Positions 3,914 through 59,066 of a stretch of DNA of 64,000 bases are shown piece by piece. Source of the DNA: Parcubacteria group bacterium Licking1014_17 (lineage in GTDB: Bacteria; Patescibacteriota; Minisyncoccia; 2-02-FULL-40-12; IGHO2-01-FULL-4-A); assembly GCA_007376485.1 (NCBI GenBank), contig VMGJ01000003.1, forward strand, positions 81,252 through 145,251, given 5' to 3'. The notes beneath the pieces are model-generated. The model ran no database searches, was not told where the DNA came from, and saw only the letters and a program-made list of their open reading frames with translations. Position numbers and translations under genes: made by a program. How positions within the stretch are numbered: the first letter of the stretch is position 1; each line of letters begins with the position of its first letter.

Positions 3914-4392
3914 GTGTCGCGGCGGGTCTATAAGCCGGATTTTGTCTTCGCCCTCCTTCGCACGGGGCTACGGAAGGGCAATGTGCGATCATTTGTCTGG
4001 GATGAACATTGCTGTTCACCTCAAGCCCTTGCGGGCTATGCGTACGAACTTTTCGGAGCCCTATCCCGCTTGCGCGGAACGGACAACGCTGTACTTGCAC
4101 CGGGCAGGGTTTAGCACGCACCTATGTCACCATAGGGCGATCAGCCTTAGGCTGAACTTTTCACCTTTCACCCGCCTTGCGGCGGATTAGTATTGTCTCT
4201 GTGCCACTTTCCCTAAGTTTTGGCTCGCGCCTTTTCTCTTAAGAAGAAAAACTGCGAAACCTTATGCTTGGTGGTCGTTAGCCACTGCCCACTTCTTCAA
4301 CTTGCAGAGGGCTTGCCCTGAGCTTGTCGAAGGGAGTCCGGACTTTCCTCTGCCGCCTTGCGGGCGACAGCAACCGCCCAACCCACCGCGAC
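3914..4392 (-). ncRNA. rnpB: RNase P RNA, bacterial type A
   Basis: The minus strand contains GAGGAAAGTCCGGACTCC (P4 5' strand) and ACAAAATCCGGCTTATAG (P4 3' strand). P1 pairing is gtcgcggtgggt with acccgccgcgac, and internal GGGCAGTGGCTAACGACCACC-like elements are present. Confidence 0.85.
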
Positions 4393-6094: not shown

Positions 6095-7272
6095 TAATAA
6101 TATCTTAACGCTTCCAGGGCGGGCAGTTTTTCGCCGCCCAAGAAAATCAGCATTGCTCCTCCGCCGATTGAAACAAAACTGTATTTTTTCAGTAAGCCGA
6201 GTTTTGTAACTTCGCTGATTGTGTCTCCTCCGCCGATAATTGAATTTTTGGCGGCCGCCACAGCTTCCGCGATTTTCCGTGTCCCCTCCGCGAATGCCTC
6301 GGTCTCCGAAAGCCCCATCGGCCCGTTCCAGATAACCATTCCTGCTTTACCGATAAAATCTGCGTACTTCGCGGCGGTTTTCGTGCCAATGTCTAAAATC
6401 ATTTCCTCGCCCGCCACCTTGTCCGCGTCTTTTATTTCGGCTTTGGAAACTGCGAGCGTATCGGGAGCCGTTACCACGTCTTCGGGAATAACAACTTTAC
6501 TCATATCCAAACCCTCCAGTGAATTTATATCTTCCGCGTCAATTAAAGATTTCCCGACTTCCAGCCCTTTAAATTTTAGAAAATTATTAGCGAGCGCTCC
6601 ACCGATTAAAATCCGCTCGGCTTTATCTAGAAAATGTTTTACCACCGGCAGTTTGGTGGAAATTTTCGCTCCGCCGAGAACCAAAACCTTGCCTTCAGCC
6701 GGCGCCTGAATCGCCCGCGAGAGATTTTCTATTTCGTCCTTCATCAAAAATCCAGCGTAAGAATCAATATATTTTGTTATCGCCGAAACCGAAGCGTGCT
6801 TTCTGTGGGCGACGGCGAATGCGTCATTTACGTAAAAATCAAAGCCCTTCGGCTCACTTCGTTCGCTCAGGGCAGGCCCTTTGGCCAGTTGTTGGGCAAA
6901 GGCATCATCATTTTTTTCTTCGCCTTCATGTCTCCTGACGTTCTCCAATAAAACAAAATTGTGCTCATTTAGAGCTTCGACGACAGCAGGACCAACACAA
7001 TCAGAAACAAAAAATATTTCCTTGCCGAGAATTTCCGATATTTGACTTACAATCGGGCTGAAAGTTTCTATGTCAGTGATGTGGGATAAAAGCGCGACTT
7101 TCGCCCCGGCACCTAATAGATAATCTATTGTTTTCTGAACCGCCTGCACCCGATAGTCGCTTGAAATCCTGCCGTGTTCCACCGGTAAATTAAAATCCAC
7201 CCGAACGAGGATTTTTTTATTTGAAAGCTCCGACTGCGGCAGAGAGTCAATATATTTCATAGTTAAAATCAT
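6094..7272 (-). CDS. pgk: Phosphoglycerate kinase
   Basis: KKILVRVDFNLP N-terminus and a glycine-rich C-terminal domain. The real start is probably the Met at MKYIDS. Confidence 0.9.
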   Translation of the reverse strand: MILTMKYIDSLPQSELSNKKILVRVDFNLPVEHGRISSDYRVQAVQKTIDYLLGAGAKVALLSHITDIETFSPIVSQISEILGKEIFFVSDCVGPAVVEALNEHNFVLLENVRRHEGEEKNDDAFAQQLAKGPALSERSEPKGFDFYVNDAFAVAHRKHASVSAITKYIDSYAGFLMKDEIENLSRAIQAPAEGKVLVLGGAKISTKLPVVKHFLDKAERILIGGALANNFLKFKGLEVGKSLIDAEDINSLEGLDMSKVVIPEDVVTAPDTLAVSKAEIKDADKVAGEEMILDIGTKTAAKYADFIGKAGMVIWNGPMGLSETEAFAEGTRKIAEAVAAAKNSIIGGGDTISEVTKLGLLKKYSFVSIGGGAMLIFLGGEKLPALEALRYY

Positions 7273-8264
7273 AGCAGATTATTTGTATTAGTAATAATCT
7301 CCCTAATTTTGTAAGTATTCCCATGCTTCAATAGCCCAAGATATGAATTGATGGTCTCCGTTCTCGGATTTTCTCTGATTCTTTTCAGCATTCTTCTTTT
7401 TGTCGATGTTCTCAAAATTCTGTGGTCTGGAAAATTAACCCAGCCGAGAAAATCAACTCCTGAAGAAAGGGTTTTAACAAATATCTTCTGGGGATGCAAT
7501 CTTAAATCTAATTCTTGCTTTAAATATTCTCCAATCGGCTGAACAATTTGCTCAAGCCACAATCTATCCTCGGATAAAATCACAAAATCGTCGCAGTATC
7601 TGATGTAATGACGGATTTTTAGTTTGTGTTTAATAAATTGGTCAAATTTATTCATATAAATATTCACAAAAAGCTGCGATGTTAAATTGCCAAGCGGCAA
7701 GCCAATGTCTAAACGGCCCGAATTGAAACTGCCGACAACTTCTTTTAACAGCCAAATAACATTTTCGTCGGAAATATATCCTGAAATGATTTTAAGCAAA
7801 ATCGCATGGTTTATGTTGGCAAAGAATTTCCGGATGTCGCATTTCAAAATCCAGCAGGTTCTTGTATTGTTCCGGCTGACTTTACGCGCGAAATAACGAA
7901 AACGATTCAGAGCTTTGTGAGCGCCTTTATTTAACCGGCAGGAAAAAGAATCGGAAATAAATATTCTATCAAAAAATGGATATAGGATTTTATAAATCGC
8001 GTGGTGCAATAGACGATCTCTGACGCTTGCTTTGTGGATATTTCTCGGCTTCGGGTCGCAGATATTGAATGCCTCATAATTTCCGTGTTTGTATGTATGG
8101 TTTACTAAATCTCGGTGCAATTCCAAAATATTATCCATTAAATTAAACTGGAATTCCTGAACATCCCGCCTATGCCTTTTACCACGTAAAAATTCTTTCC
8201 ATGCTTCCAAAATATTCTCAATGCTGATAATATCTTCAAAACTATGAGCCAATTTGATTTTCAT
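7269..8264 (-). CDS. DGR reverse transcriptase (cassette 1)
   Basis: RT domain with YCDDF (the YxDD box) and LPLGNLTSQ, the [LIV]GxxxSQ motif that separates DGR RTs from group II intron RTs (QGxxxSP). There is an adjacent TR and an Avd-like gene. Confidence 0.85.
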   Translation of the reverse strand: MKIKLAHSFEDIISIENILEAWKEFLRGKRHRRDVQEFQFNLMDNILELHRDLVNHTYKHGNYEAFNICDPKPRNIHKASVRDRLLHHAIYKILYPFFDRIFISDSFSCRLNKGAHKALNRFRYFARKVSRNNTRTCWILKCDIRKFFANINHAILLKIISGYISDENVIWLLKEVVGSFNSGRLDIGLPLGNLTSQLFVNIYMNKFDQFIKHKLKIRHYIRYCDDFVILSEDRLWLEQIVQPIGEYLKQELDLRLHPQKIFVKTLSSGVDFLGWVNFPDHRILRTSTKRRMLKRIRENPRTETINSYLGLLKHGNTYKIREIITNTNNLL

Positions 8265-8648
8265 AAAAACAACCCTTTAAGCCCCCCCCCCAAGATCTTA
8301 CCCTTACTTCAAAAGATAAAAGATATGTATTTATTGTGGTATGAATACTATCAGGTATTACCCAAACCGCATAGATATACTCTCGGTCAAAGAATTGATT
8401 ATTTGCTGGTAGAAATCATAGAAGCAATAGCTACTGCCGCTTTTTTGATGCGTGAAGAAAAAATACCGTATGTTCGTTTGGCAGTCAGGAAAGTTGATGT
8501 TTTGAAAATACTCTTAATGATACTTTGGGAAACCAAATCTCTGGGCGATAAAAAATATATAGCCCTCTCATTAAGAATTGACGGGATAGGCAAAATGCTC
8601 GGCGGTTGGCATGGCCAGCTACAAAAACAAAACTCCCCTGCTAAATAG
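8244..8648 (+). CDS. avd: Avd-like accessory protein (four-helix-bundle / 23S-IVS protein family), divergent from the RT
   Basis: 134 aa carrying HRYTLGQRI...IGKMLGGW, characteristic of the PF05635-type bundle. It starts MSQFDFHKNNPLSPPP, with the PPP encoded by a C10 tract. Confidence 0.8.
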   Translation: MSQFDFHKNNPLSPPPKILPLLQKIKDMYLLWYEYYQVLPKPHRYTLGQRIDYLLVEIIEAIATAAFLMREEKIPYVRLAVRKVDVLKILLMILWETKSLGDKKYIALSLRIDGIGKMLGGWHGQLQKQNSPAK

Positions 8649-8668
8649 CCAGGAGAGAAATGAAGTAA

Positions 8669-8803
8669 TTTGCGACGGGTGAATACCCAGCGGTCGTTGC
8701 CATTCCAGAAGTTATCAGGGTTGCCGTTGTTACCGTTGAGCCACAGGTCATCGTCATTGCGTTCGACGTTGAACACCTTGAGGTTGCCGTCCGAGTCCGT
8801 AAT
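8669..8803 (-). repeat. DGR template repeat TR1
   Basis: 135 bp, identical in register to 9137-9271 except for at least 24 positions. Every one of those is T on the plus strand, that is A in the minus-strand template. In the VR frame it encodes AAC-rich NGNNGNPDNFWNGN. Confidence 0.85.
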
Positions 8804-9057
8804 ATGTACAAGATACCTCCCTTGTCACCACCCCTTGAATACTCTTGGGGTTGTATCGTATTCGGCATCGTAATGCCATAGTATCTTATACCAAGTAGCT
8901 TCATTTTTTGAAGTATCTATATACACCACTCTATCTGAAACCGTAATCGCAGATATTCTCGATGTATGGATACTGGGTTCGGTAGTTGGAAACCTTGGTC
9001 TCCATCATATTCACCTACTGCCGTTTCCATTTTACACGACAAATGCACAAAACAAAA

Positions 9058-9077
9058 CTCGTGCATTTCTGCACGAG
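9058..9077 (-). terminator. 8-bp GC-rich hairpin with a GAAA loop, about 60 nt 3' of VR1 and followed by TTTTGTTTTG. It is either the target-gene terminator or a DGR homing hairpin
   Basis: ctcgtgca-gaaa-tgcacgag on the minus strand. A GC-rich stretch lies between the VR end and the hairpin. Confidence 0.5.
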
Positions 9078-9133
9078 CGGAAGGGCCAAGGGGCCAAGAA
9101 CCAAACGAGGTTCAAGTCCCCAAGGTCAGAGGA

Positions 9134-9799
9134 CTACTTGCGACGGGCGAATACCCAGCGGACGCGGCCAAACCAGAAGACACCAGGGCGGCCGATGCTA
9201 CCGTCGAGCCACAGGTCATCGTCACGGCGTCCGACGTAGAACACCCCGAGGTAGCCGCCCGAGCCCGCAATCGGCTCCATAGCAATCGGGAGCCCCTCGC
9301 CCTTAGGCTGGTCTTTGTATTGCAAACGCAGCTGAGGACCGACTTCGTTGGGGCAGAGCTGGAGACCGAGACTAAGTGCCCGCTCGTAGATGTCCTTGCG
9401 GGTGGCACCGTCTTTGAAGCCAATCTCAGCGACACTGACGTTCACCAGTCCGATTGAGGTTTTCTTGGGGCTTACCTTGAAATCAGGTCCGCCGAGGGTA
9501 TAGTTGCCCCAGTCGCCGATGCGGAAGCCGCCGTTCTTGAGGGCTTCACGGAACTTGCAAGCGTCCGCAAGCCCAGTGCCCAACTTGACGGTCTTCCAGA
9601 TCGGAAAGTTAACCGCTCCGATAACCTGGGGACGCCCGCCATTCTTGAGGAAGGCGGTGAAGCGGCTACCGAACTCGGCGGATGAAAGGTTGATGACTTC
9701 GACCTGGAGCTTGTCTCCATCGAGCTCATCCCAGTTAATCTGGGTTGCGACTCGGGCCGAGATTTCGAGAGCTTGACCGCGTGATACGGCTTTACTCAT
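9134..9799 (-). CDS. DGR variable (target) protein 1. It is cytoplasmic, about 221 aa, with the VR at the C-terminus
   Basis: SD AAAGGAGAAA 7 nt before the ATG (MSKAVSRGQ). The C-terminus ...GRRDDDLWLDGSIGRPGVFWFGRVRWVFARRK is encoded by VR1. Confidence 0.8.
   Translation of the reverse strand: MSKAVSRGQALEISARVATQINWDELDGDKLQVEVINLSSAEFGSRFTAFLKNGGRPQVIGAVNFPIWKTVKLGTGLADACKFREALKNGGFRIGDWGNYTLGGPDFKVSPKKTSIGLVNVSVAEIGFKDGATRKDIYERALSLGLQLCPNEVGPQLRLQYKDQPKGEGLPIAMEPIAGSGGYLGVFYVGRRDDDLWLDGSIGRPGVFWFGRVRWVFARRK
9137..9271 (-). repeat. DGR variable repeat VR1
   Basis: See TR1. The VR runs through the stop codon of the target gene. Confidence 0.85.
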
Positions 9800-9925
9800 T
9801 GTCGTTTCTCCTTTTTCTGCCAGAGGGCTACTATCCGTAGTCATAGCCAGGAAATTCCGATAAATCAGGATCTCCTGGCTATGACTACAATCGCAAGAAG
9901 TATTAAAGAGCGACATTATGTTCTA

Positions 9926-9954
9926 ATGATACTCCGTTTATTTAGTTTTGTCAA
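9926..9954 (-). promoter_or_regulatory. Near-consensus sigma70 promoter for target gene 1 (TTGACA, 17 bp, TATCAT)
   Basis: Read on the minus strand upstream of the target. The 5'UTR also holds an 11-bp hairpin at 9842-9882. Confidence 0.5.
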
Positions 9955-9962
9955 CACACCAC

Positions 9963-9987
9963 AAAACCCTCATTCTATAAGGGTTTT
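9963..9987. terminator. Hairpin aaaaccct-cattctata-agggtttt, probably the terminator of the upstream dedA-GT2 unit. An identical copy lies at 36268-36292
   Basis: Stem flanked by T-runs, and the same sequence sits upstream of target gene 2. Confidence 0.4.
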
Positions 9988-10085
9988 TCATGTAAAACAA
10001 GCCATTGTACTTTGAGGGTTACTGAAGTTGTCGCCCCATCCTCATTAAAACTTCAGAGGGTAAAGCAGTATTTGTACAGTCCAGG

Positions 10086-10238
10086 CTGGAATGTCTTTTC
10101 GGCCGCTTAGAGGCTATGGATTGCTTGGTCGGCAATAGTATAATATCTGGCGTATAGCCAACTATTGCCGAATCCACAGCCTCTAGCGAGTGAGATATTC
10201 CGCCGGAGAATCTTGAACGTGCCGAAAAGACATTCCGG
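10086..10238 (+). ncRNA. Structured element copy B (three-way-junction family)
   Basis: The outer stem ctggaatgtcttttcggc / gccgaaaagacattccgg contains a T-G wobble that is only compatible on the plus strand. It has a long internal imperfect hairpin and a second small hairpin with loop cgccgg. Confidence 0.4.
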
Positions 10239-10275
10239 TCGGACGGGTAGCCCCGAAAAGCGCAATGGCGAGTTT

Positions 10276-10890
10276 TTATTTTTTACCCTTTTTTATATGC
10301 CTCCAAACATACCAAACCAAGCCGATGACGATTAGAGCAATAATTACATACTCAAACTTTTTGAAATACGGCGCCAGGAATTCCCAGTTATTGCCGGCTT
10401 TAAAACCTACGTAGGCCAGCCAGAGATTCCACAAGAATGAGCCCAAAATAGTAGGCAACAGAAAACGCCAGAACGGAATGCGCATGCTACCCAGAGCGAT
10501 ACCACTGACGGTTCTGATGCCAGGCAGAAGGCGCGAAACAAACGCCACCCAAAGCCCGTGCTTCGCCGCCCATTTGTCCACCTTTAAAATATCATCCGTA
10601 TGAATAAACAAAAAATGCCCGTGTTTTTCCACCAAAGGCCGCCCGCCATACCAGCCAAGAAGAAATATTAGCGAAGAGCCGAGTGTATTCGCCAACGTAG
10701 CCGCCAACATCACCAGCCAAAAATTAAATCTCCCCGTTGCGGCCAAAAATCCCGAAAACGGCAGGACAATTTCGGAAGGAATCGGAATCAGGGCGCTTTC
10801 CAAAAATTGGGTAACAAAAATGCCGGCGTAGCCGAAATGGGAAATAACTCCCAACGCCCAACTGGCAAGTGATCCTAAAATGCCGCCCAT
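10276..10890 (-). CDS. DedA/SNARE-associated family membrane protein
   Basis: 204 aa, multi-TM, carrying the FLESALIPIPSEIVLPFSGFLA motif region. Confidence 0.8.
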   Translation of the reverse strand: MGGILGSLASWALGVISHFGYAGIFVTQFLESALIPIPSEIVLPFSGFLAATGRFNFWLVMLAATLANTLGSSLIFLLGWYGGRPLVEKHGHFLFIHTDDILKVDKWAAKHGLWVAFVSRLLPGIRTVSGIALGSMRIPFWRFLLPTILGSFLWNLWLAYVGFKAGNNWEFLAPYFKKFEYVIIALIVIGLVWYVWRHIKKGKK

Positions 10891-11612
10891 CAGGATTTAT
10901 TATACACTTTTTTACAGAGATTGAGGCGGATTTCCAAAATTTCAAAAAGCATTTTTAACATCCCGCTGAATTTCACGTGGCTCCTTTCATAATTCCGCCA
11001 GACAATTGGGGCTTCTTTTATTTTAAATCCCAGCCGGTGGGCAATCGCCAGCGCCTCAACATCAAACGCCCAGCGGGAAATAGTGAGCCGACCAAAAATC
11101 TCCGCGGCGGCTTTAGCGGTAAATAACTTGAAACCGGCTTGCGAATCCTCAACGTCCACCGGAACAATCGTCCGCACGACAAAACGGAAAATCGCGCCCA
11201 GAAAATCGCGGTGCCACGGCTGATGAATGGCAATTTCGGCGCCCTTAATCCGCCTTGAGCCGATAATTACGTCGTAGCCATCTTTGACCCACGGCAAAAA
11301 ATTTTCCACCTGCTCCACAGTGGTGGAGTTATCGGCATCCATAAATATGCGCAAATCCCCATTTGCCTTAAGTATACCATCGCGCACGGCTCCGCCTTTG
11401 CCCTGATTGATTTTATTATCCAGCAAAATTATTTGCGGAAATTGGACCTGTGTTTTTCTCACCGCATCAGCCGTGCCGTCTTTTGAGCCATCATTAACAA
11501 CAATCACTTCGTAATCATACGGCTGTCTTGAAAGATAATCACAAACCAAGCGCAGGGTTTTTTCTATGCGTTTTTCTTCGTTATAGGCAGGAATGATGAC
11601 GGATAAGTGCAT
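10890..11612 (-). CDS. Glycosyltransferase family 2 (polyprenol-phosphate glycosyltransferase, DPM1-like)
   Basis: VIIPAYNEE...VIVVNDGSKDGT...DADNS motifs. Confidence 0.8.
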   Translation of the reverse strand: MHLSVIIPAYNEEKRIEKTLRLVCDYLSRQPYDYEVIVVNDGSKDGTADAVRKTQVQFPQIILLDNKINQGKGGAVRDGILKANGDLRIFMDADNSTTVEQVENFLPWVKDGYDVIIGSRRIKGAEIAIHQPWHRDFLGAIFRFVVRTIVPVDVEDSQAGFKLFTAKAAAEIFGRLTISRWAFDVEALAIAHRLGFKIKEAPIVWRNYERSHVKFSGMLKMLFEILEIRLNLCKKVYNKS

Positions 11613-33591: not shown

Positions 33592-34590
33592 CTATATCAT
33601 CGGATTCCCCAAATTGGCAATAATTCCCCTAAGTTTGAAAGTATTCCCATGTTTCAATAGCCCCAAATATGAATTGACAGTTTCTGTTCTCGGATTTGCC
33701 TTGATTCTTTTCAATATTCTTCTTTTTGTTGACGTCCTCAAAATCCTGTGATTTGGGAAAGTAATCCAGCCGAGAAAATCAATGCCCGAAGAAAGAGTCT
33801 TAATAAATATCTTTTGGGGATGCAATCTTAAATTTAATTTTTGTTCCAGATATTCGCTAACTGGTTGGATAATTTGTTCAAGCCATGGCTTATTTTCGGA
33901 CAAAATCACAAAATCATCGCAATATCTTATGTAATAGCGAATTTTCAGTTTGTGTTTAATAAATTGGTCAAATTCATTCATATAGACATTCACCAAAAGC
34001 TGCGAAGTCAGATTGCCGAGCGGCAGACCGATGCCGAAGTAGCCCGAACTGAAACTGCCAATAACTTCCTTTAACAACCAAATAATGTTTTCATCGGGAA
34101 TATATCTTGAAATGATTTTCAATAAAATCGTATGGTTAATATTGGCAAAGAATCTTCGGATGTCGCATTTCAAAACCCAGCAGGTTCTTGTGTTGTTCCG
34201 GCTGACTTTACGCGCAAAATAACGAAAACGATTTATAGCTTTGTGTGTGCCTTTATTTAATCGGCAGGAAAATGAATCGGAAATAAACGTTCTATTAAAA
34301 AATGGATACAATATCCGGTAAACCGCGTGGTGCAACAGCCGGTCACTGACGCTTGCCTTGTGAATATTCCTCGGTTTCGGGTCGCAGATATTGAATGCTT
34401 GATAATCGCCATGCCTATATGTATGATTTACCAAATCTCGGTGTAATTCCAAGATATTGTCCATTAAATTAAACTGGAATTCCTGAACGTCCCGCCTGTG
34501 TCTTTTGCCCCGCAGAAATTCTTTCCATGCTTCCAAAATGTTCTCAATACTGATAATATCTTCAAAATTATGAGCCAATTTGATTTTCAT
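33592..34590 (-). CDS. DGR reverse transcriptase (cassette 2). The ORF track extends it to 34767, but the homologous start is MKIKLAH at 34590
   Basis: About 88 percent aa identity to RT1, with the same YCDDF and LGNLTSQ motifs. Confidence 0.85.
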   Translation of the reverse strand: MKIKLAHNFEDIISIENILEAWKEFLRGKRHRRDVQEFQFNLMDNILELHRDLVNHTYRHGDYQAFNICDPKPRNIHKASVSDRLLHHAVYRILYPFFNRTFISDSFSCRLNKGTHKAINRFRYFARKVSRNNTRTCWVLKCDIRRFFANINHTILLKIISRYIPDENIIWLLKEVIGSFSSGYFGIGLPLGNLTSQLLVNVYMNEFDQFIKHKLKIRYYIRYCDDFVILSENKPWLEQIIQPVSEYLEQKLNLRLHPQKIFIKTLSSGIDFLGWITFPNHRILRTSTKRRILKRIKANPRTETVNSYLGLLKHGNTFKLRGIIANLGNPMI

Positions 34591-34982
34591 AAAAATAGCC
34601 CTATAAGCCCCCCCCCAGGGTTTCGTTGCCGATATTACAAAGGTTGGTTTCGGCATACAAGCTGTGGCATGAACATCTGTCGCATTTTCCCAAAACCTCA
34701 CGATATACGCTCGGCGGGAAAATTGACAGCTATTTTGTAGACGCCGTCGAAGCGATTCACACCGCAAGTTATCTTGGCAAATCAGAGAAACTCCCTTGGA
34801 TCAGGCGCGCGATAACAAAACTTGATGATCTGAAATTCTTTTTGCAAATCGCTTGGGAACTCAAGGTATTGGATAACAAAAAATACATAGCACTTTCCGA
34901 GCCGCTGGCCGAAATTGGCCGAATGCTGGGCGGATGGATGCGGCAAACGGAGTCGGCAAAAACAAAACCGAACCTGTTATAG
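34498..34982 (+). CDS. avd: Avd-like accessory gene (cassette 2). It appears frameshifted at a C9 tract. The N-terminus MSQFDFHKNSPISPPP (frame A) and the body from 34626 (frame -1) are rejoined by one extra C
   Basis: The body carries SRYTLGGKI...IGRMLGGW. The poly-C is at 34608-34616. Confidence 0.7.
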
Positions 34983-35002
34983 GTTCGGAGAAACTTTGCT
35001 TA

Positions 35003-35126
35003 CTTGCGGCGAGCGAGGAACCGGCAGTCGCCGTCCCACTTGTTACCGAGGTAATTGAGGTTCGCGTTCCGCTCGTTGGCGTTCCTGTAGACGTACACGA
35101 CGTTCCGGTTGCCGTTGCGGTCCTGC
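35003..35126 (-). repeat. DGR template repeat TR2
   Basis: At least 17 mismatches to 35478-35602, all at plus-strand T (minus-strand A) positions of the TR. Confidence 0.85.
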
Positions 35127-35384
35127 TGTGTGCACGGTACCATCTATGCCACTATCCTTTGAATACTCTCGGGACTGAATCGTATTTGGGAGCATAACTC
35201 CGCCAGTACCGTACACCAAGTAGCTTTGTTTTTTGAGATACTGTGAAAATCACTGGCCGGAGGCGTACCCACGGCCACTCCGTTTTACGCAGTTCTGGAA
35301 TTCGGCCGTTTGCAGTCGTAACCGCAAACATATCAGCCTATTATCCGTGATTTACTATACTCACTATTTTCAAAAATGAAAGAG

Positions 35385-35420
35385 CGCCTCGTCCGGAAGA
35401 CCCGAACGAGGCGCAAGAGT
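35385..35420 (-). terminator. Hairpin plus T-tract about 65 nt downstream of VR2 (the target 2 terminator, or a homing hairpin)
   Basis: gcgcctcgt...acgaggcgc stem followed by TCTTTCATTTTTG on the minus strand. Confidence 0.45.
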
Positions 35421-35468
35421 CCAAGGCACTCAAGATCTTGAAGACCTGAGCGCGCAAGGACCCAAGGA

Positions 35469-36113
35469 CTACTTCTGCTTGCGGCGAGCGAGGAACCGGC
35501 AGTCGCCGTCCCACTCGCCACCGAGGTAATCGAGGGACGCGCACCGCTCGTCGGCGTGCCTGCAGACGAACACGACGCACCGGCTGCCGTGGCGGTCCTG
35601 CCAGTGCTGGCCGATGGCCGGGATCGGGAACTCCCGCTGGAGCTCCGGCTTCTCGGCGCCGACGGTCAAGTCCTCGTAGGCGTCGGCGGGCTCGAGGTCG
35701 AGCTTCGCCAGCTCGGTGAGCACCTGCTCGTCGCTCATGTCTCGCCCGAAGTGGACGAGGACGAGGTCGCTCTTGACCCTGCCCTTGAGGCGCGGCGGGA
35801 AGTTCTTGGCGTTGACGTTGCCGTTCTTCCAGTCGTACTTCCCACGCTTGAGCAGATCGGCTATGTCCTCGTCGTAGTCGATGACGTGGCAACCGAGCTT
35901 GGTGATCGTGGGGTCAGGGTAGATCGGGGCGAGGCCGAGGACCTTCCGCAGGGCGTTGCGCTCGGGCAACGTTCCCTGCTTCGAAGCCTCAATCACGTCG
36001 GCGACGATTCCGCTATCGAGCAAGTCCGCCTGGAACTTCTCCACAGTCAGTCCCTTGTCGTTGGCAAGCCGGACAACTTCATTTCCTTGGGCGAGCGTCA
36101 CGTTGTTGGCCAT
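35469..36113 (-). CDS. DGR variable (target) protein 2. It is cytoplasmic and 214 aa. The whole gene is markedly GC-rich relative to its neighbours
   Basis: SD GAAAGGAGGG before the ATG. The C-terminus ...CRHADERCASLDYLGGEWDGDCRFLARRKQK is encoded by VR2. Confidence 0.8.
   Translation of the reverse strand: MANNVTLAQGNEVVRLANDKGLTVEKFQADLLDSGIVADVIEASKQGTLPERNALRKVLGLAPIYPDPTITKLGCHVIDYDEDIADLLKRGKYDWKNGNVNAKNFPPRLKGRVKSDLVLVHFGRDMSDEQVLTELAKLDLEPADAYEDLTVGAEKPELQREFPIPAIGQHWQDRHGSRCVVFVCRHADERCASLDYLGGEWDGDCRFLARRKQK
35478..35602 (-). repeat. DGR variable repeat VR2
   Basis: See TR2. Confidence 0.85.
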
Positions 36114-36382
36114 GACACCCTCCTTTCCTTTGTGGCTATGGAACCACCATAAGCTCCGACGGAATGTCGGTACTCACAGCGTTCCGGTTGCTGATTTTGC
36201 AGGTAAAATCAAGGTACTATGATACCCTATATTATACTAAACTTTACGACAAAAAGCAAGGACACAAAACCCCTCATTCTATAAGGGTTTTTTAATATAA
36301 AGCGAGTCATTATGCTTTGAGGGCTCAAAAAGCACAATAGCGAGACCGCCTAAATTTTGCTTCACAAAACTTGAGCGGGCTT

Positions 36383-48426: not shown

Positions 48427-48546
48427 ATTGGTCTGGCGGCTACCCACTTTCGCAGTCATACGACCACTATCATAGGCCTTGATGGATTTCACTTCTGAGT
48501 TCGGAATGGGATCAGGTGGGACACCATCGGTATAGTCGCCAAGCCA
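48427..48546 (-). rRNA. rrf: 5S ribosomal RNA
   Basis: The minus strand reads ...CCCACCTGATCCCATTCCGAACTCAGAAGTGAAA... with a helix-I closure. Confidence 0.85.
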
Positions 48547-48983
48547 ATGTTTTTTATTACACGGCAAACAATGTCGCCTTAATGGCAACAGAATAAATTG
48601 GACACTCAACCTTGTAAGGAAATACAGACGATCTATTAGTAACTCTTGGCTCAAAGCCTTGCGGCTCTTACACCTGAGTCCTATCAACGTGGTAGTCTTC
48701 CACGGATCTGCGAAGCCTAATCTTGGGGCCCGTTTCGCGCTTATATGCTTTCAGCGCTTATCGGAACCGAACATAGCTGCCCAGCGCTGCCCTTGGCAGG
48801 ACAACTGGTAGACCAGAGGTTCGTTCATCCCGGTCCTCTCGTACTAGGGACAACCCCCCTCAAGCTTCTAACGCCCACACCAGATAAGGACCAACCTGTC
48901 TCACGACGGTTTGAACCCAGCTCGCGTACCCTTTTAATTGGCGAACAGCCAAACCCTTGGCAGCTTCTTCACCGCCAGGATAG

Positions 48984-49862
48984 GGCGCACATTTATCTTC
49001 TATTACTAGAAGTGCAGACTATATCTTCTCCCGTCTTCCAATCGAAAGGTGGGAGTTGGCGTATTATAGCAGTTAAAAAACTGCTATCCTCTCGCAATAG
49101 CGAGAAAGTCGTTACGGGGTAAGAGAAACTTTATACAATAGACTATCTAAAATATACGGCTTGATGATTTCACAAAACTTTTGCGATGATCTTTCCGGAA
49201 TATATATGTTGAATGTTTTACCCTTTTTATGGATTGCCGCTACGATTCCGAAATTCATCTTCAGACAATCCACTAGCATTTGCTGTTCTTGATACGAAAA
49301 TATATCCGTATTAAGTCTCAGCGCATTACAATCGTTCCGTTTATATCCGTCGTCCATTACCCAAACCGCCAGCGATAATGGTTCAATAAGAATTTCTTGA
49401 ATATTATCAGGAACTATTTTGATTCTATTCTTGTAAAACATATCCCGCCATTCCTGAAATATTCCGTTTGAACATGTCGAGAAATGTAACCGCCTGTATT
49501 CTTTATTCTCTTTCTTGTGGAACGAAGTGATAACTCTGGGCTTACTTGGCACAAGGTTTTTAAATACTTCATATTTCCATAATACATACTCCTTCTGTGC
49601 CATGCCGTGGTCTACTTTTAGACGCACGCCCTTGCCATTTTGCTCCAGATGCCCGTCGCCGAGCATTGTTCCAATTAATATCGCTTTTTGTGTTGCCGTT
49701 AATAGCATACTGTATAAAGCCTCTCCTACTTCCCACGATATTATCCTATCATAGCTGGGTAGCCTCTAATAGGACTCCATCGTTATTAGCCAACGTTGCA
49801 AGTTTATTTCTTAAAAGACACAAACTTGCCAACTCGAATTACTTCGAGTACGGCCCGTTTTG
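48984..49862 (-). mobile_element. Intron-like insertion (putative group I intron) in 23S domain V. It interrupts GATGTCGGCTCA | (T)ATCCTGG and carries a LAGLIDADG gene
   Basis: The exon sequence is contiguous with E. coli-like 23S on both sides, and the boundaries were located by eye. Confidence 0.6.
49112..49708 (-). CDS. LAGLIDADG homing endonuclease (two-motif, monomeric type)
   Basis: [11 protein letters not shown] and [10 protein letters not shown] motifs. Confidence 0.85.
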
Positions 49863-50172
49863 TTGAGCCGACATCGAGGTGCCGAACACTGCCGTCGCTA
49901 TGGACGCTCGGGCAGTACCAGCCTGTTATCCCCGGAGTAGCTTTTATCTGATGATCTTCCCCGTTCCTACGAACAAGGGTCGGTTCACTAACACCTGCTT
50001 TCGCATCTGCTTGACACATCCGTCTCACAGTTAAGCCGGCTTATGCGTTTGCACTATCGCTCCGATTTCCATCCGGAGCTAGCCGACCTTCGTACGCCTC
50101 CGTTACTCTTTAGGAGGCAACAGCCCCAGTTAAACTGCCCGCCAGACACTGTCTTGATGGCACCCTAGAAGG

Positions 50173-50474
50173 GGACGAGTAAACTCGTCCGAGCATCCTG
50201 TAATATTCGTTCAAATATCACAGGATGTTATAGATTATGAGCATTAAAGAATCTAATCTCATTTTTTTGATCGCTGATACAGGTCAGAAAGAGTTTTTCA
50301 TCCCCAAAACAAAAGGGTTGTAAACTCCTGTCGCCTATGTTTTTCAACACCGCATTGGCGACATGTTTCTCTAGATCCGAACTTTCAAAATCAAACTTTA
50401 TCTGCTGTGTTCGGACTTCTGGCCCGCCTTCACATTTATTAAAGTGAAGTTTCAGAAGTATCATTTTATTTCCT
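50173..50474 (-). other. About 300-nt insertion in the terminal loop of a 23S domain-V helix. The arms are ggtggcaccctggaagg and ccttctagggtgcc. It contains an SD-led ORF plus two 3' hairpins
   Basis: The helix arms are perfectly complementary and flank the insert, and the equivalent E. coli helix is a short hairpin. Confidence 0.5.
50228..50464 (-). CDS. Small ORF of 78 aa from the SD-proximal ATG, embedded in the 23S helix-loop insertion
   Basis: GGAAGGAGGAAATAAA-ATG. The ORF ends just before two stable hairpins. No recognisable domain. Confidence 0.4.
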   Translation of the reverse strand: MILLKLHFNKCEGGPEVRTQQIKFDFESSDLEKHVANAVLKNIGDRSLQPFCFGDEKLFLTCISDQKNEIRFFNAHNL

Positions 50475-50770
50475 CCTTCCAGGGTGCCACCAGTTAGAAT
50501 TACAAATGACAAAGATGGGTGTTTCATTGGCGGATCCACGCCTCCCGAAAGAGGCGCTTCAAATCCTCCCCACTACGCTACGCATTGCCGCTCGTAACCC
50601 AATATCAAGCTACAGTAAAGCTTCCGGGGTCTTTCCGTCTTGGTGCGGGTAGTCAGCATCTTTACTGACATTGCATTTTCACCGGGCTAGTGGCTGAGAC
50701 AGTCCCCCAGTCGTTACGCTATTCATGCGCGTGGGAACTTACCCCACAAGGTATTTCGCTACCTTTGGAC

Positions 50771-51522
50771 AGTTCATTCTTTTTATTAGTCTCGGCGGAT
50801 TCAATAAACTCGCCACCGGACAGCCTCATAGTCGCCTATGAGATCGGACTCTATCTTATCGCAATTTTTTGCGATTCTGACGTATTAGTCTCTGGGGATT
50901 CTCGAGATTTTTGGTAATCAGAAAGAGAATATTTTCGCTTCCTGCCCTTACCTTCATTTAACTTCTCTCTTAATTCAATAATTTTTTCAAGACCCTCACG
51001 GGTAAAATGTTTGCCATTCGAGATGGTCTCAACGATTCTTTTGAATATCGAGAAGTTTGTTTTCTTTGAAGATGATAAAAAATTATATCTTTCAAAGAAT
51101 GGCACAATGATATCTCTCAATGAGTTTAGATTATTCACTGAATAATTCCAAACTCCATCTTTTCTTAACTCTAACCTTCCTGCCCCGAAATGTTTTTTCA
51201 TTAACGCCAGGACTGTCTGATCTCTTTGAGCCACATTGAAGGTCAAATAGATTTTCCAGCCAAAGCGGTAGTCATTCCTGGGAATTAACGAAACATTGAA
51301 GCTACCTTCACCATCCACAAAACCGGTAAAATACCAAGCTGTCGAGATGGGAATTTGTTTAATAACTTCTTTCATTTTGTTTAGAGTCTCGAGTCTTTCC
51401 TGCGGATTATCTGCACTGATGTTTTATTACTGATCTTCGACGTTCGGATCTAGTAACATCAGATACTAACCAGACTTTCCCGCATATAGTCAGATTTTAC
51501 AACTACAACTGTCGTTATAGTT
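50771..51522 (-). mobile_element. Intron-like insertion (putative group I intron) in 23S domain IV at the helix-69 region. It interrupts GGTAACTATAACG | GTCCAAAGGTAGCG, near E. coli position 1917, and carries a LAGLIDADG gene
   Basis: Exon junctions were read directly. Confidence 0.6.
50851..51375 (-). CDS. LAGLIDADG homing endonuclease (single-motif, homodimeric type)
   Basis: FTGFVDGEGSF motif. Confidence 0.85.
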   Translation of the reverse strand: MKEVIKQIPISTAWYFTGFVDGEGSFNVSLIPRNDYRFGWKIYLTFNVAQRDQTVLALMKKHFGAGRLELRKDGVWNYSVNNLNSLRDIIVPFFERYNFLSSSKKTNFSIFKRIVETISNGKHFTREGLEKIIELREKLNEGKGRKRKYSLSDYQKSRESPETNTSESQKIAIR

Positions 51523-52554
51523 ACCGCCGTCGTTCACGGGTGCTTCGGGCATCTGCAATGAGCTTGCGCCCACCACTTCAACCGTTAACATTCCCGCACC
51601 GGACAAGCGTCACCCCGTATACATCCTCTTTCGAGTTAGCACGGAGTTGTGTTTTTGATAAACAGTCGCCAGGGGTCTTTCGCTGCGTCCGCGCTTGCGC
51701 GCGGAAGGCCTTATCGCTAACTTACGGCCGCTTTTTTGCCGAGTTCCTTAGCCACTAATCACCCGTTCGCCTTGGTACAATCATACCGGTCCACCTGTTT
51801 CGGTTTTAAATACGTACCCAATCCTTTTGTCTTTAGAAGTTTTTCTTGGAAGCGCGCTCCCTTGAATTTCACCTTGCGATGATTTCCACAACGCTTGGGT
51901 TTCGCACTGAAGCGGCGACACGGATTTGCCAATGTCGCACCCTTACGCCATGAACGCAAATCCTTAATGCGCTCAGGGTACTGCATTTCGTCTCTCCATC
52001 AGAAAGGACCGGGGGGCCGGAATATTAACCGGCTATCCTTCGGCCTCCCCCGCCCGCAAGCGGGGTTATCCTTAGGCACGCCTAACCCTCCGTTGATTGT
52101 CATTGCGGAGGAAATCTTGGACTTTCGGCGAGAGGGGTTTTCACCCTCTTTGCGGTTACTCATCCGAGCATTCTCTCCTCCAAGCGCTCCAGCATGTCTC
52201 ACGGCACACCTTCACTGCGCTTGAAGTGCTCCCCTACCGTATGGAGACTTCGTAAAGGACTTAAGAATAAAAATTCTTAAGAAAAAAAAATGGACGGCGA
52301 GGAAGTAACTATGGTATCCAGGCACCACCAAGGACTTGCCCGGTCCCGGAACCCCACTTTTATACGTGAGGTTCTTAAGTTGGACTTTTAGGGAGCAGTA
52401 GCCATGGTTTAGCGGTCCGCGATAGTTAACTTCCTCGCTTATTTTTCCTTTACGAAATCTCCACACCCACGCATTCGGTACTATGCTTAGCCCCGTTGAA
52501 TTTTCGGCGCATCTTGCCTCGCACGGCCGAAGCCGTGTATCGAATAGTAAGCTG

Positions 52555-52596
<42 letters not shown>

Positions 52597-53227
52597 TATC
52601 TGTCTAAGGCAAAACACTTCCTTCTGTCACTTAGCATAGATTTAGGGACCTTAAGCTGTGGTTAAACGGCTATTCCCGTCGCGACCGTGAAGCTTTGCCC
52701 CCACGGTCTCACTACCGGTCATTACGCCGCGGTATTCAAAGTTTGGTTGATAATCCTACCCAGAGGGCACAGAAAATCATCCAGAGCTTTACCCCCGCGG
52801 TTACTAACCGGCGCTGCCCCTAAAGGCATTTCGGGGAGAACCAGCTATTACCGAGTTCGATTAGCTTTTCACTCCTACCCGCAAGTCATCCGATGATGTT
52901 GCGCTATCAACCAGTTCGGGCCTCCATCCGCCTTTCGGCGAACTTCACCCTGCTCACGGGTAGCTCACCCGGCTTCGGGTCTTTTACAAGCTACGTACAC
53001 ACATATATAAACCGAGGTGCAAACTCACCCGGTTTATATAGATGTGAGTCGCGCTATTAACACTTGGTTTCCCTTTGTCTCCGCCCTGTCGGGCTTAGAC
53101 TTTGCAACTTGTAAAAACTCGCTCGGTCATTCTTCAATAGGCACACCGTCGCCCCTTCGTCTTGCGACGAAAGAGTTCCGGCTCTTTGTAGGCATATGGT
53201 TTCAGTTACTATTTCACTCCCCTCACC

Positions 53228-53270
<43 letters not shown>

Positions 53271-54292
53271 ATCATCAAAAGTATTTAGTCTTGGACCGTA
53301 GTAGGCCCGGATTCACCACGGATAGTCTCGTCCATGGTTACTTAGGTAAAGAGACTTTCGCCTCAATAATACGTAGAGTTCGGAAATTTTCGCTTACGGG
53401 GCTATCACCCTCTTTGGCCGGCCTTTCCAGGACCGTTCTGCTAACCGCCGAATTTGTAACTCTATTTATCTTTGGAGCACAGCTTTCAGCCTCCCATGCC
53501 TCATGGCAGTGGAAGCTGGTCGCCGTGCAGATAATTGTATTATCCCTGCAACACCCGTTTATGTACTTTTAGGTACGAACAGGTTTAGACTATTGCCCCT
53601 TTCGCTCGCCACTACTTGGGGTATCGCGAACAACAAACGCCTGTATGCCTTGCGGCACACGGGTGTTCATTGTTACGTTCGCTTTTTTTTCCTCTGGGTA
53701 CTGAGATGTTTCACTTCCCCAGGTACGCCTCCCGGCTTGCGCCGGAATCACCGCATGTTACTGCAGTGGGGTTTCCCCATTCGGACATCTCCGGATCAAA
53801 GCCCGCTAGACGGCTCCCCGAAGCTTATCGCAGTCACGCCACGTCCTTCATCGCCTTTTGATGTCAAGGCATCCTCCATACGCCCTTGTTATGCATTTCC
53901 TTACAAGGTTGAGTTTCCAATTCCTTGTAGTACTTCCGATACCAAAGCCGCATCTTCTTATACCAGAAGTTCTAATCAGACTTAATTGTTAAAATTCTTG
54001 CCTTTTGCTCCCTGCGGCTGGCTCCTTAAAGAGGCAATCGTAGGAGGCTCTCCTTCGCCGAAAACGTATCATGGCTTCGGGGGAGTGGGCAAATTAGACT
54101 TAAAAACCGCGTCCGGCGCGGCTGTTTTGAATCGCTTCAAGTTAAAAATCAGCACCAGCCGCTTGTTTTTATAAGTCTATTGTATTTGGTATTCATTTGT
54201 CTTTGGTAATTGTAGCAGAACCCAACCTACGGAGTCAATACGTATGTTGATAAGGCGTTGATATCGCTAAGGACATCTTCAGACGGCGCGCC

Positions 54293-57337: not shown

Positions 57338-58356
57338 ATAGATATCTTTTTTTCCAGTTTTGACTCCATCGCTTTCTGAATATTATAACCGCAACAATGT
57401 TTCAAAACTCCCAGATAAGATTGTAAGTTATCGGTGTTAACTTTTTTCAAAATTCTTCTTCTTGTTTTTGTTCTCAAATTTACGCAGTATGGTCTGACAA
57501 TATAACCCAGAAAATCAATTCCCTGCCGGTATTTTCTAATGATAATTTTTTGCGGATGAAGATTTAATTGTAATATATTATTCAGATAATTGCCGACTAA
57601 AAACGATAATTCGTATAAATAATTTTTATCTTCGCTTAAAATAATAAAATCATCGCAATATCGGAGATAAAATTTCAATTTCAGATGGTGTTTTACAAAC
57701 TCATCCAACTCATTCAAGTATATATTCGCGAATAGCTGGCTTGTCACGTTGCCGAGTGGTAATCCTTTGTCAATATCTTTTTTAAAACTACTAATAATAA
57801 CTCCCAACAGCCAGAGTACGTTTTCGCCGTGAATCTTTCTTTTTATTAGACCAACTAGAATTTCGTGATCTATCGAATCAAAAAATCTCTTGACATCGCA
57901 TTTCAAAGCAAAAATATTCCTGCTGTTGTTTCTGCTCAATTTGCGGCAAAAAGATTTTAATCTCCTGATTCCTCTATACGTGCCTTTTCCCAGCCGACAA
58001 GAATAAGAATCAAAAATAAACCCAGCATCAAAAATTGGATAAAGAATCCTGAAAACGGCGTGATGCAGGATTCTATCTCTAACTGTGGCCTTATGAATGT
58101 GCCGAAGCTTTGGGTCAGTGATGCAAAAAGATTCGTATGGTGAGTGCTGATAAATCTTGGCTGATAGTTGATTGTGTAACCCAAATAGGTTATCTTCCAG
58201 ATTAAATTCGAATTCTAAAATGTCGCGTCTCTTCTTCTTTCCACGCCTAAATTCTTTCCACGCTAAAAACAAATTTTCCAAACTGATTATTTCTCCAAAT
58301 AAATCATGACTCTTATAAGCCCCCCCCCAAAAAAAAACTCCATACCTTTGATTCAT
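57331..58356 (-). CDS. DGR reverse transcriptase (cassette 3). The start is ambiguous, and the ORF as drawn reads through a T9/G9 homopolymer
   Basis: RYCDDFIIL and LPLGNVTSQ motifs. Confidence 0.8.
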
Positions 58357-58671: not shown

Positions 58672-58700
58672 GAAAAACTCCCTAAGGAGTTTTTCTCACA

Positions 58701-58824
58701 AAACTACCTGACGGGCACGGAGGTTGTCGTTGGCATTGCCTGTGTTGTTCCAGTTCACGTTGACCTTGTCATCGCTGTTCCGATACATGTTTGGCACGTC
58801 GCCATCCTTGTTGCGAGAACCCGC
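58701..58824 (-). repeat. DGR template repeat TR3
   Basis: 124 bp at a constant offset of 410 from VR3. At least 20 mismatches, all at plus-strand T positions of the TR. It is AAC-rich in the VR frame. Confidence 0.85.
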
Positions 58825-59034: not shown

Positions 59035-59066
59035 GAAAGGCCCGCATCAGTCAGCCACTGCGGGCC
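59035..59066 (-). terminator. Hairpin plus T-tract downstream of target gene 3
   Basis: aggcccgca...tgcgggcct stem followed by TTCTCTTTTTGC on the minus strand. Confidence 0.45.

Follow-up and report, generated by a model that had tools for sequence, protein, structure and literature searches.

Genes and repeats of the cassette

The window, the whole 64,000-nucleotide stretch of DNA that was analysed, comes from a public Parcubacteria MAG and carries at 7269-9954 a target gene ending in a variable repeat (VR), a template repeat (TR), an avd gene and a reverse transcriptase (RT) gene. The RT (331 amino acids; 7269..8264, minus strand) contains the DGR-specific LGNLTSQ motif, as part of GLPLGNLTSQ, and YCDD, both as named in the first-pass annotation; the catalytic D and YxDD and the [I/L]GxxxSQ motif are conserved. 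Its best PDB match was bRT (8ub7), the RT of the Bordetella phage DGR, with an E value of 1.2e-42, followed by group II RTs at about 1e-20. By this similarity search, the RT is of DGR type and lies nearer to the RTs of DGRs than to those of group II introns or retrons, in agreement with the earlier reading. No relatives of the RT were found in viral contigs by a search sensitive to close relatives only.

The avd gene (accessory variability determinant; 8244..8648, plus strand) had been noted as an Avd-like gene next to the RT, to which we add that it lies on the strand opposite RT, TR and target; avd is inverted within the same cassette in all 105 related loci. Its product matched Pfam bAvd (1.2e-12; 48.7 bits, above the cut-off of 40) and NCBIfam DivGenRetAVD (4.9e-18; 65.4 bits, under the equivalog cut-off of 80), with the family model starting at residue ~19. 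Between the divergent RT and avd starts lies a 10-bp G:C homopolymer (8282..8291), which is poly-G on the RT strand and poly-C inside the avd ORF and is kept in related loci at 8-13 bp. Most of these loci start avd at a TTG 7-15 nt past the poly-C. In the present locus that codon is TTA, and the only canonical start in frame ahead of helix 1 is ATG 8244, which lies upstream of the poly-C and, with 10 C's, is in frame with avd. On the other strand, after the G-run come an SD-like AGAGG and the RT ATG; we found no convincing RT promoter, and a -10 box directly 3' of the G-run, with the run as promoter spacer, was rejected because just 16 of 78 non-redundant loci have one. A weaker possibility is that the homopolymer acts as a slipped-strand switch turning hypermutation on and off, which would mean stochastic control of a mutator.

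The TR (8669..8803, minus strand) contains 38 adenines, 35 of them at codon positions 1 or 2, with 8 AAC and 2 AAT codons, and the VR (9137..9271, minus strand) forms the final 45 codons of the target gene. Compared without gaps at an offset of 468 on the minus strand (8803->8669 against 9271->9137), the repeats showed 110 identities and 25 mismatches over 135 nt. The alignment agrees with the 135-bp match described in the first-pass annotation, which had counted "at least 24" differing positions and restricted them to TR adenines: tabulated by TR base, all 25 mismatches fall on A (15 A>G, 7 A>T and 3 A>C), so that 25 of the 38 adenines are changed. If mismatches were random with respect to base, the probability of this would be ~1.7e-14. 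The peptides quoted earlier were also correct (N-G-N-N-G-N-P-D-N-F-W-N-G-N for the TR, ...S-I-G-R-P-G-V-F-W-F-G-R for the VR), and across 41 homologues the VR entropy was 2.41 bits at A-templated codons against 0.66 bits at other VR codons (P = 2e-7). The most 3' mismatch, at 8669, sets AAA against AAG directly before the stop. Since related loci show a fixed TR/VR difference at the equivalent position (TR ...CGCAA[A/C]T, VR ...CGCAAGTAG), this mismatch is more likely a boundary difference of IMH/IMH* type than a product of mutagenesis. The 3' end of both repeats is GC-rich and conserved (CGTCGCAA), with a VR-specific G-TAG against A/C-T in the TR.

Could the RT belong to a group II intron, a retron or a defence system, and the repeats be a plain duplication with biased substitutions? 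The generic RVT_1 domain would fit all of these classes, and the top NCBIfam match by score was the group II RT/maturase model. However, that model (TIGR04416) reached 140.6 of the 300 bits required by its cut-off, the retron St85 model 51.5 of 235, and Drt2, 3a, 4 and 5 remained far under their cut-offs, while Rfam found neither group II intron RNA nor retron RNA in the window. Given that a DGR RT leads the PDB ranking by 20 orders of magnitude, that the substitutions replace A alone, by each of C, G and T, at codon positions 1 and 2, and that Avd is adjacent, we regard this explanation as extremely improbable and, as far as sequence can tell, refuted. The exclusive A mismatches, the DGR-type RT and Avd support what had been proposed from the start, a complete DGR with adenine-directed mutagenesis.

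Because the 135 nt contain no non-A mismatch and RT, avd and target all retain intact ORFs, the DGR has apparently been active recently. A dead relic, in which the TR/VR pair records past mutagenesis and, for example, Avd is crippled by the TTG->TTA change and the slippery 10-C tract, would account for the unusual avd start, and decayed cassettes do occur among relatives, consisting of the target and a leader remnant without TR, avd and RT. We nevertheless think it rather improbable that the present element is one of them: ATG 8244 leaves avd in frame, the leader RNA scored 256 bits in the covariance model, among the higher scores, and drift after inactivation should have added non-A mismatches beside the 25 changed adenines, as it has in the decayed loci.

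The target gene had been annotated with the VR at its 3' end, which stands, and with a start at 9916, to which the database ORF (hypothetical protein, Parcubacteria bacterium Licking1014_17) also runs. The start is most likely ATG 9799 instead, because AAGGAG lies 7 nt upstream and the resulting 221 amino acids (9134..9799 with the stop, minus strand) equal the homologue length. The target has more than 580 homologues and a single database copy of the exact protein. We found no Pfam domain in the 221-aa target, and neither a recognisable domain nor a membrane segment in this small protein. Its AF2 model, which is confident (pLDDT 88.5), weakly resembles the C-type lectin/FGE fold and had no significant Foldseek match in the PDB; the target is probably a small, non-secreted binding protein with a lectin fold.

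Upstream of the target gene are a promoter-like site (TTGACA-17-TATCAT; 9926..9954, minus strand), which is a consensus match only (11/12), and, in the presumed 5'UTR, a hairpin with 25-nt arms that are 88% complementary (9837..9888, minus strand). Just 3' of the VR is an interrupted hairpin (9086..9125, minus strand), its stem segments split by T-T mismatches in an 8-nt periodic CTTGG-like pattern. It is found in all related loci with differing stem sequences, is distinct from the hairpin after the TR and occupies a position analogous to that of the hairpin/cruciform which follows the IMH in the DGR of Bordetella phage (PMC5758913). An intrinsic-terminator-like hairpin with a U-run (9047..9078, minus strand) is predicted to end the target transcript.

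The RNA that holds the template

The TR is embedded in a conserved non-coding unit of ~400 nt (9024→8623), whose length was 390-416 nt in the 29 loci of a MAFFT alignment (A2). Ahead of it is a -10-like hexamer, TAAAAT (9029..9034, minus strand); a TAnnnT hexamer is in place in 32 of 32 related loci, in 18 with an extended TG. The 3' tail (8623..8668, minus strand) consists of a hairpin (8658-8634) and a U-tract (8633-8623) and covers the end of avd on the other strand, namely its stop codon and the ~8 codons before it. In related loci, the TR is 14-50 nt from the avd stop codon, except in one locus with a tandem duplication. We infer the ends of the RNA from the consensus -10 box and the terminator-like hairpin. 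An Avd-binding stem-loop has been predicted 3' of the TR in many DGRs (bioRxiv 10.1101/2023.10.23.563531), and the hairpin could by analogy serve as one instead of, or besides, acting as a terminator. Transcription may also pass through the TR unit into antisense avd and on to the RT.

The part of the unit preceding the TR forms a structured 5' domain of about 245 nt with five covarying helices (8806..9024, minus strand). H1 (9022-8975) and H2 (8965-8923) are followed by a single-stranded A-rich/UACUUGG segment (8909-8892) and by H3, in which 8891-8880 is paired with 8817-8806 and which encloses the hairpins H4 (8877-8864) and H5 (8851-8830). RNAalifold predicted 56 pairs on A2, 41 with compensatory changes. 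In total, 97.1% of the alignment cells were paired, in comparison with 81% in shuffles and 39-50% when the partner was slid, and the 288 compensatory double changes, against 75 in shuffles, were reached in 0 of 500 shuffles. A covariance search placed the TR RNA upstream of 64 independent RT loci, and in this RT-anchored metagenome set 95.3% of cells were paired, with 673 double changes against 188. At gathering thresholds, Rfam gave nothing relevant across the window.

Two features tie the 5' domain to the TR. The TR-VR homology starts -3 to +7 nt from the end of H3 in 29 of 29 loci, with a mode of +1, and in most of them H3 ends 0-1 nt ahead of it. Furthermore, a long-range duplex of 9 bp joins 8666-8658, 3' of the TR, to 8906-8898, upstream of H3 (92% paired against ~50% when slid; 8 compensatory cells against 2.7). 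A local hairpin ACUUC/GAAG in the single-stranded segment, considered as an alternative to this duplex, was rejected as its signal did not exceed that of shuffles. We conjecture that the invariant UACUUGG pairs in register with CGCAA at the TR 3' end, a pairing that can form in 97% of cells and, because its bases are invariant, lies beyond a covariation test.

The window contains two further DGRs, making three paralogous cassettes in all. DGR2 has the 5' RNA domain, yet its target is unrelated: BLASTP of target 1 against targets 2 and 3 was not significant, the collinear alignment of targets 1 and 2 having 23% identity and an E value of 0.29 (not significant). On DGR3, covariance model R1 gave a weak partial match (E = 0.035), and the single-sequence fold suggests a like layout. 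These patterns bear on whether the 5' region could stand outside the reverse-transcription RNP, as a cis-regulatory leader for the level or stability of the TR RNA or as an unrelated neighbouring small RNA, with the RT-binding RNA elsewhere, such as in a read-through RNA antisense to avd. The link between the 5' domain and the RT rests on sequence, the hairpin 3' of the TR may terminate inefficiently, and in the Bordetella phage the RT-binding RNA does sit 3' of the TR, all of which would suit a separate leader. We still find it unlikely: the 5' domain occurs only beside TRs, shares the strand of TR and RT in every case and keeps a constant spacing from the RT, and, as DGR2 illustrates, it tracks the RT/avd cassette across target families. 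H3 remains within a few nucleotides of the TR boundary in every aligned locus, the single-stranded segment pairs with bases adjoining the TR on its 3' side, and beyond the hairpin, in the 3' direction, avd coding constrains the sequence.

A proposed role for the 5' domain

We are confident that 7269-9954 is a complete chromosomal DGR of CPR type (B3: target/VR - TR - inverted avd - RT). Under the mechanism that we propose, an extended -10 promoter belonging to the TR unit (about 9034) would drive its transcription and the transcript would end at the hairpin/U-tract over the avd stop codon, giving a stand-alone template RNA. This RNA would be bound by RT and pentameric Avd, the products of the two divergent genes, and cDNA synthesis would begin at the TR's GC-rich 3' end (…CGTCGCAA), misincorporate opposite adenines and be stopped by H3 at the TR 5' edge. 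The cDNA would then replace the VR, with the recipient marked by the conserved CGCAAG end and the interrupted hairpin 3' of the VR, and about 10^19-10^20 C-terminal variants of the target would be accessible.

To our knowledge, the function of a DGR RNA has been worked out for one element only, the Bordetella phage DGR, whose functional RNA is 3' of the template. Because only ~45 nt follow the TR in the present locus, the RT-binding and priming roles of the 140-nt 3' spacer of that phage are probably taken here by the 5' domain. A broader claim, which we offer tentatively and at somewhat less than even odds, is that the CPR (B3, clade 2) DGRs as a class use a self-contained template RNA of ~400 nt in which the 3'-spacer functions, RT and Avd recruitment, primer positioning and the cDNA stop, have moved to the 245-nt 5' domain, with H3 as the stop. 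If true, this would be a permuted and previously undescribed class of DGR RNA, and a 5' domain doing the same job would mean that a permuted RNA can also serve to assemble the ribonucleoprotein. A compact RNA of ~400 nt with two small proteins would suit reconstitution or engineered targeted mutagenesis. The three cassettes of the window and ~100 related loci define the non-coding anatomy of the CPR class precisely: promoter, 5' domain, exact boundaries of the template as set by helices, a terminator shared with avd and a recipient hairpin.

Comparison with known systems

CPR bacteria are rich in DGRs. [quoted passage not shown] 2018, PMC5758913), and DGR clade 2 is restricted to CPR and has domain-less targets (Roux et al. 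2021, PMC8144416). The present locus has the B3 layout, with the TR upstream of the RT and avd between them on the reverse strand, and it matches clade 2 as well. With other CPR/Patescibacteria DGRs it shares the gene order, the inverted avd, a chromosomal site surrounded by housekeeping genes, a small target in which neither a domain nor a membrane segment is recognisable, and the presence of several DGRs per genome; at the level of the cassette we see no difference. As a DGR alone, the locus thus adds little to the standard CPR layout, and its value is that of a well-resolved example. To the C-type-lectin-fold variable proteins of DGRs (Mtd, TvpA; FGE-sulfatase-like), the likeness of the target model is weak.

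The DGR of Bordetella phage BPP-1 (mtd-avd-TR-brt; Handa et al., PMC6182149; bioRxiv 10.1101/2023.10.23.563531) has in common with the present one the adenine-specific transfer from TR to VR, the Avd partner, an RT that shares the catalytic and LTSQ motifs and is 30-40% alignable, and a VR at the target C-terminus with a GC-rich 3' end and a hairpin after it. In both, moreover, a stem-loop directly follows the TR on its 3' side, a duplex joins the TR flanks so that the TR is looped out, and a helix lies where cDNA synthesis should stop. The differences are that the BPP-1 element is phage-borne and has avd upstream on the same strand, whereas the present element is cellular and its avd inverted, and that the RNA is arranged differently. 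In BPP-1, the functional RNA, with the primer strand, the thumb ring and the RT-binding stem, forms the 140-nt spacer on the 3' side of the TR, and no more than ~11-20 nt are needed upstream; here, 245 structured nucleotides precede the TR and ~45 nt follow it before the U-tract and inverted avd. The helix abutting the TR 5' end is formed with downstream RNA in BPP-1 but is here H3, local to the 5' domain. The locus accordingly lacks an RNA of the Bordetella type, a TR followed by a structured spacer of ~140 nt, and has no match to Rfam RT-10, which is the BPP-1 TR-RT spacer and one of the RT-associated RNA motifs RT-1 to RT-19 (Weinberg et al. 2017, PMC5737381), or to another family. Like those motifs, the RNA of this locus is structured, conserved and located beside a bacterial RT gene, and is presumed to work for the retroelement, but 8200-9200 matches no Rfam 15 family even at E values up to 10. 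A 245-nt RNA 5' of the TR, a TR-specific promoter or terminator and a G:C homopolymer are not described in the main text of PMC5758913 or in PMC8144416, the two papers on which this comparison rests. What appears to be new is the conserved, highly structured RNA of ~400 nt that holds the TR; the DGR itself is ordinary for its kind.

Template repeat, variable repeat and the cassette proteins

We listed the ORFs of region 6800-11000 and compared the template repeat (TR) and variable repeat (VR) of DGR1 with the offset fixed at 468. Similarity was confined to the plus-strand blocks 8669-8803 and 9137-9271, with identity collapsing on either side. On the minus strand, the 135 nt contained 25 mismatches, and the TR, the lower-coordinate copy, had A at all 25 while the VR had G at 15, T at 7 and C at 3. 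With 25 of the 38 TR adenines altered and the TR being 28% A, the probability of all mismatches falling on A by chance is ~1.7e-14. The VR forms the final 45 codons of ORF 9134..9916(-), and in its frame 35 of the 38 TR adenines occupy codon position 1 or 2, the TR containing eight AAC and two AAT codons. The first-pass annotation had described a complete DGR with repeats differing only at template adenines: aligning 8669-8803 with 9137-9271 and tabulating the mismatches bore this out, and translation in the VR frame reproduced the peptides it had given for both repeats. Together with the codon-position bias, the observation therefore stands, and the element is correctly called complete. Because the 135 nt lack any non-A mismatch and the genes are intact, the sequence argues for recent activity of DGR1.

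The reverse transcriptase (RT; 7269-8264, minus strand) matches Pfam RVT_1 and, among all solved structures, is closest to the Bordetella phage DGR RT 8ub7 (E 1.2e-42, residues 9-296), with the catalytic aspartate, the LTSQ motif and YxDD all conserved. Group II intron RTs and "retron-type" RT entries rank after it at ~1e-20, consistent with the annotated DGR type over a group II or retron affinity, and every score against the NCBIfam group II, retron, DRT and AbiA RT models was far under cut-off. The Avd-like gene reported beside the RT matches Pfam bAvd and NCBIfam DivGenRetAVD from around residue 19; its ORF is now placed on the plus strand (8244-8648).

A G:C homopolymer (8282-8291) is located between the divergently oriented starts of RT and avd, and in DGR1 it is in frame within the sole full-length avd ORF. 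Runs of at least 8 bp were found in 85 of 105 related loci (L001-L160), with a mode of 10 and lengths up to 13. Two loci (L099 and L102) share 6969 nt identical save for the run length, 10 versus 9, and L115 and L116 likewise differ from L122 as judged on 80-nt flanks on each side. Either a slipped-strand switch or an artefact of sequencing may explain the run.

The target gene probably starts at ATG 9799, which has AAGGAG 7 nt upstream and gives a product of 221 aa, the length of its homologues. Its sequence is that of a hypothetical protein from "Parcubacteria group bacterium Licking1014_17", with no match in Pfam, NCBIfam or PDB sequences; its homologues number at least 580, nearly all from Patescibacteria. 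In an alignment of 41 of them, a conserved core is followed by a C-terminus alternating conserved scaffold and hypervariable residues, and the column entropy was 2.41 bits at codons A-templated at position 1 or 2 versus 0.66 in other VR codons (P value 2e-7). The AlphaFold model is confident (pLDDT 88.5) and weakly suggests a putative, divergent lectin-like fold. The sequence shows no hydrophobic segment at its N-terminus, in agreement with the targets of CPR bacteria described by Roux et al. (PMC8144416).

The target genes of the three cassettes in the window have G+C contents of 59% (9134-9799), 64% (35469-36113) and 52% (59103-59873), whereas the window has 46.7% and RT and avd have 36-38%. 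The elevation spans the entire ORF, beyond the VR. Across 62 related loci (among L001-L080), targets averaged 56.5% and flanks 42%, the target being higher in 60; of third codon positions, 45% are C and 12% A. Between target promoter and start codon, a hairpin with 25-nt arms of 88% complementarity (9837-9888) occurs once in the window.

Three cassettes in the window and their relatives

The window contains three DGRs with a common layout of target(-) with VR, TR(-), avd(+) and RT(-), amounting to three mutator cassettes in 64 kb of a small genome. Like DGR1 (7269-9954), DGR2 (33592-36113; TR 35003-35126, VR 35478-35601) and DGR3 (57331-59873; TR 58701-58824, VR 59111-59234) have all their repeat mismatches, 16 and 20, respectively, at TR adenines. 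Their targets (214 and 256 aa) match no Pfam domain and are not significantly similar to that of DGR1, and no TR-VR cross-similarity was found among the three cassettes. The RTs of DGR1 and DGR2 are 85% identical, and that of DGR3 is ~52% identical to both.

Housekeeping genes surround the cassettes (PGK, RecA, FtsK, SecY and a proton pyrophosphatase), and the window includes genes for 5S rRNA (48431-48543) and RNase P RNA (3915-4389). The 23S rRNA gene (48616-53900) measures 5285 nt against a 2925-position model, implying ~2.3 kb of insertions, either intervening sequences or introns; such insertions are often reported in CPR bacteria. Between the DGR1 target promoter and a DedA/VTT-family gene, we observed a nested, near-perfect hairpin of ~150 nt (10088-10236; arms of 16, 15 and 11 nt, folding energy -85 kcal/mol, z -9.1) with no Rfam match and no second copy in the window. 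A repeat finder also gave a 65-nt inverted repeat whose arms lie 25 kb from each other (1105-1169 and 26110-26174; 85% complementary) and a 44-nt direct repeat (24964-25007 and 36232-36275; 73% identical).

We scanned the target alignment against one genome per species (231 loci, 80 kept) and the RT against metagenome contigs (487 loci, 80 kept). Roughly half of the 80 target loci carry a TR, an inverted avd and an RT directly downstream at nearly constant spacing, and the remaining half have no DGR genes within 4 kb. The avd was opposite in strand to the RT in all 105 judgeable loci. TR-(avd)-RT with reversed avd is architecture B3, found in 90% of CPR DGRs (Wu et al., PMC5758913), and DGR clade 2 is cellular and restricted to CPR (Roux et al., PMC8144416). 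DGR1 belongs to this known CPR kind (B3/clade 2) and is, as such, an ordinary example of an element type that is both known and common, in a publicly available genome.

The related loci include some departures from this layout. In L012, L023, L034, L051, L059, L066 and L077, a degenerate TR-leader RNA copy follows the target homologue, and the next 1.7-3.7 kb contain neither TR nor avd nor RT; these resemble cassettes that decayed and left behind a "frozen" target gene. Two loci carry two tandem identical copies each of leader and TR (L005 4570-5317 and L026 1163-1995; periods 481 and 523 nt), which may represent genuine duplications that supply two templates or may be artefacts of assembly. 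Target family members were also found on large contigs labelled non-CPR: L019 (Bryobacterales, 1.17-Mb contig), L072 (Syntrophorhabdaceae, 5.5-Mb chromosome) and the Verrucomicrobiota-related L056 and L065. L019 has a full TR-(avd)-RT cassette and leader RNA upstream of the target, not downstream. Horizontal transfer or mis-binning could account for these placements.

RNA anatomy around the template repeat

When the region from target stop to RT start was aligned across relatives, conservation extended far past the TR, an anatomy additional to what the first-pass annotation described. On the minus strand, an interrupted hairpin directly after the VR, with stem sequences varying by locus but pairing kept, is followed in the 5' to 3' direction by a putative target terminator and by a TAnnnT hexamer, present in every one of 32 loci and frequently accompanied by an extended TG. 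The TR unit itself (9024→8623, minus strand) is very constant in length, 390-416 nt across loci, and consists of a 245-nt 5' domain, the TR and a short tail, which reads …CUUCAUUU, a hairpin and then UUUUGUUUU. The hairpin and its U-tract overlap, on the opposite strand, the final ~8 codons of avd together with its stop codon.

RNAalifold on a MAFFT alignment of 29 loci predicted 56 pairs, 41 with compensatory changes, and zero pairs within the TR. Counting pairs in the same loci, we found 97.1% of cells paired versus 81% in shuffled alignments and 39-50% with partners slid by 1-3 columns; doubly changed cells numbered 288 versus 75 in shuffles, with none of 500 shuffles as high. A 9-bp duplex joins an A-rich single-stranded segment (8906-8898) with the tail just 3' of the TR (8666-8658); 92% of its cells were paired, against ~50% after sliding, and compensatory cells numbered 8, against 2.7. 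A local hairpin that would compete with this duplex had no support. The TR-VR homology starts -3 to +7 nt (mode +1) past the 3' end of H3, a 12-bp helix of the 5' domain, in 29 of 29 loci, and the long-range duplex starts 3-4 nt past the 3' end of the homology. These positions at the TR edges make the TR a ~135-nt loop with its ends joined at the H3/duplex junction.

We built a covariance model of the 5' domain. In the window, it matched the DGR1 and DGR2 copies only; DGR3 gave no significant match, but its predicted single-sequence fold resembles the DGR1 arrangement: a helix of 12 bp borders the TR, which is followed by a hairpin of 14 bp. The model matched beside TRs in target-anchored loci, and in RT-anchored loci, none of which were used for building, it gave 64 matches, all on the RT strand and upstream of the RT at near-constant distance wherever the upstream flank was complete. 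Pair counts in the RT-anchored set were 95.3% paired and 673 versus 188 double changes, in an alignment that is fitted to the model and leans towards the structure. Rfam 15 had no match to the TR RNA even at E up to 10. The RNA anatomy predicted around the TR is well supported by these comparisons and, as far as we have checked, apparently undescribed.

Proposed mechanism and comparison with the Bordetella phage DGR

In the likeliest scheme, the target would be transcribed from a near-consensus promoter (9954-9926) and the TR RNA produced as a separate transcript, with RT and Avd supplied by the head-to-head gene pair. The RNA-bound RT-Avd would start copying at the GC-rich 3' end of the TR, misread adenines and proceed as far as H3, and the cDNA would replace the VR, marked by its CGCAAG end and the downstream hairpin. 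The 22 variable codons allow ~10^19.6 protein variants.

The Bordetella phage DGR, the sole element whose DGR RNA is understood, needs ~11-20 nt on the 5' side of the TR and a downstream spacer of 140 nt with an Avd-binding stem-loop directly after the TR, a primer strand, a strand whose pairing with an upstream segment gives the cDNA "stop," a single-stranded "thumb ring" and a long RT-binding stem (PMC6182149; bioRxiv 10.1101/2023.10.23.563531). Post-TR stem-loops and upstream/downstream duplexes have been predicted in 207 of 278 DGRs, CPR included, in a survey limited to 40 nt on the upstream side and 100 nt on the downstream side (bioRxiv 10.1101/2023.10.23.563531). The DGR1 RNA similarly has a stem-loop after the TR and a duplex between upstream and downstream segments. 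Unlike the Bordetella RNA, it has no room 3' of the TR for the remaining elements and instead carries 245 structured nt upstream; we infer that this 5' domain may supply the remaining spacer elements and that H3 may act as a physical cDNA stop.
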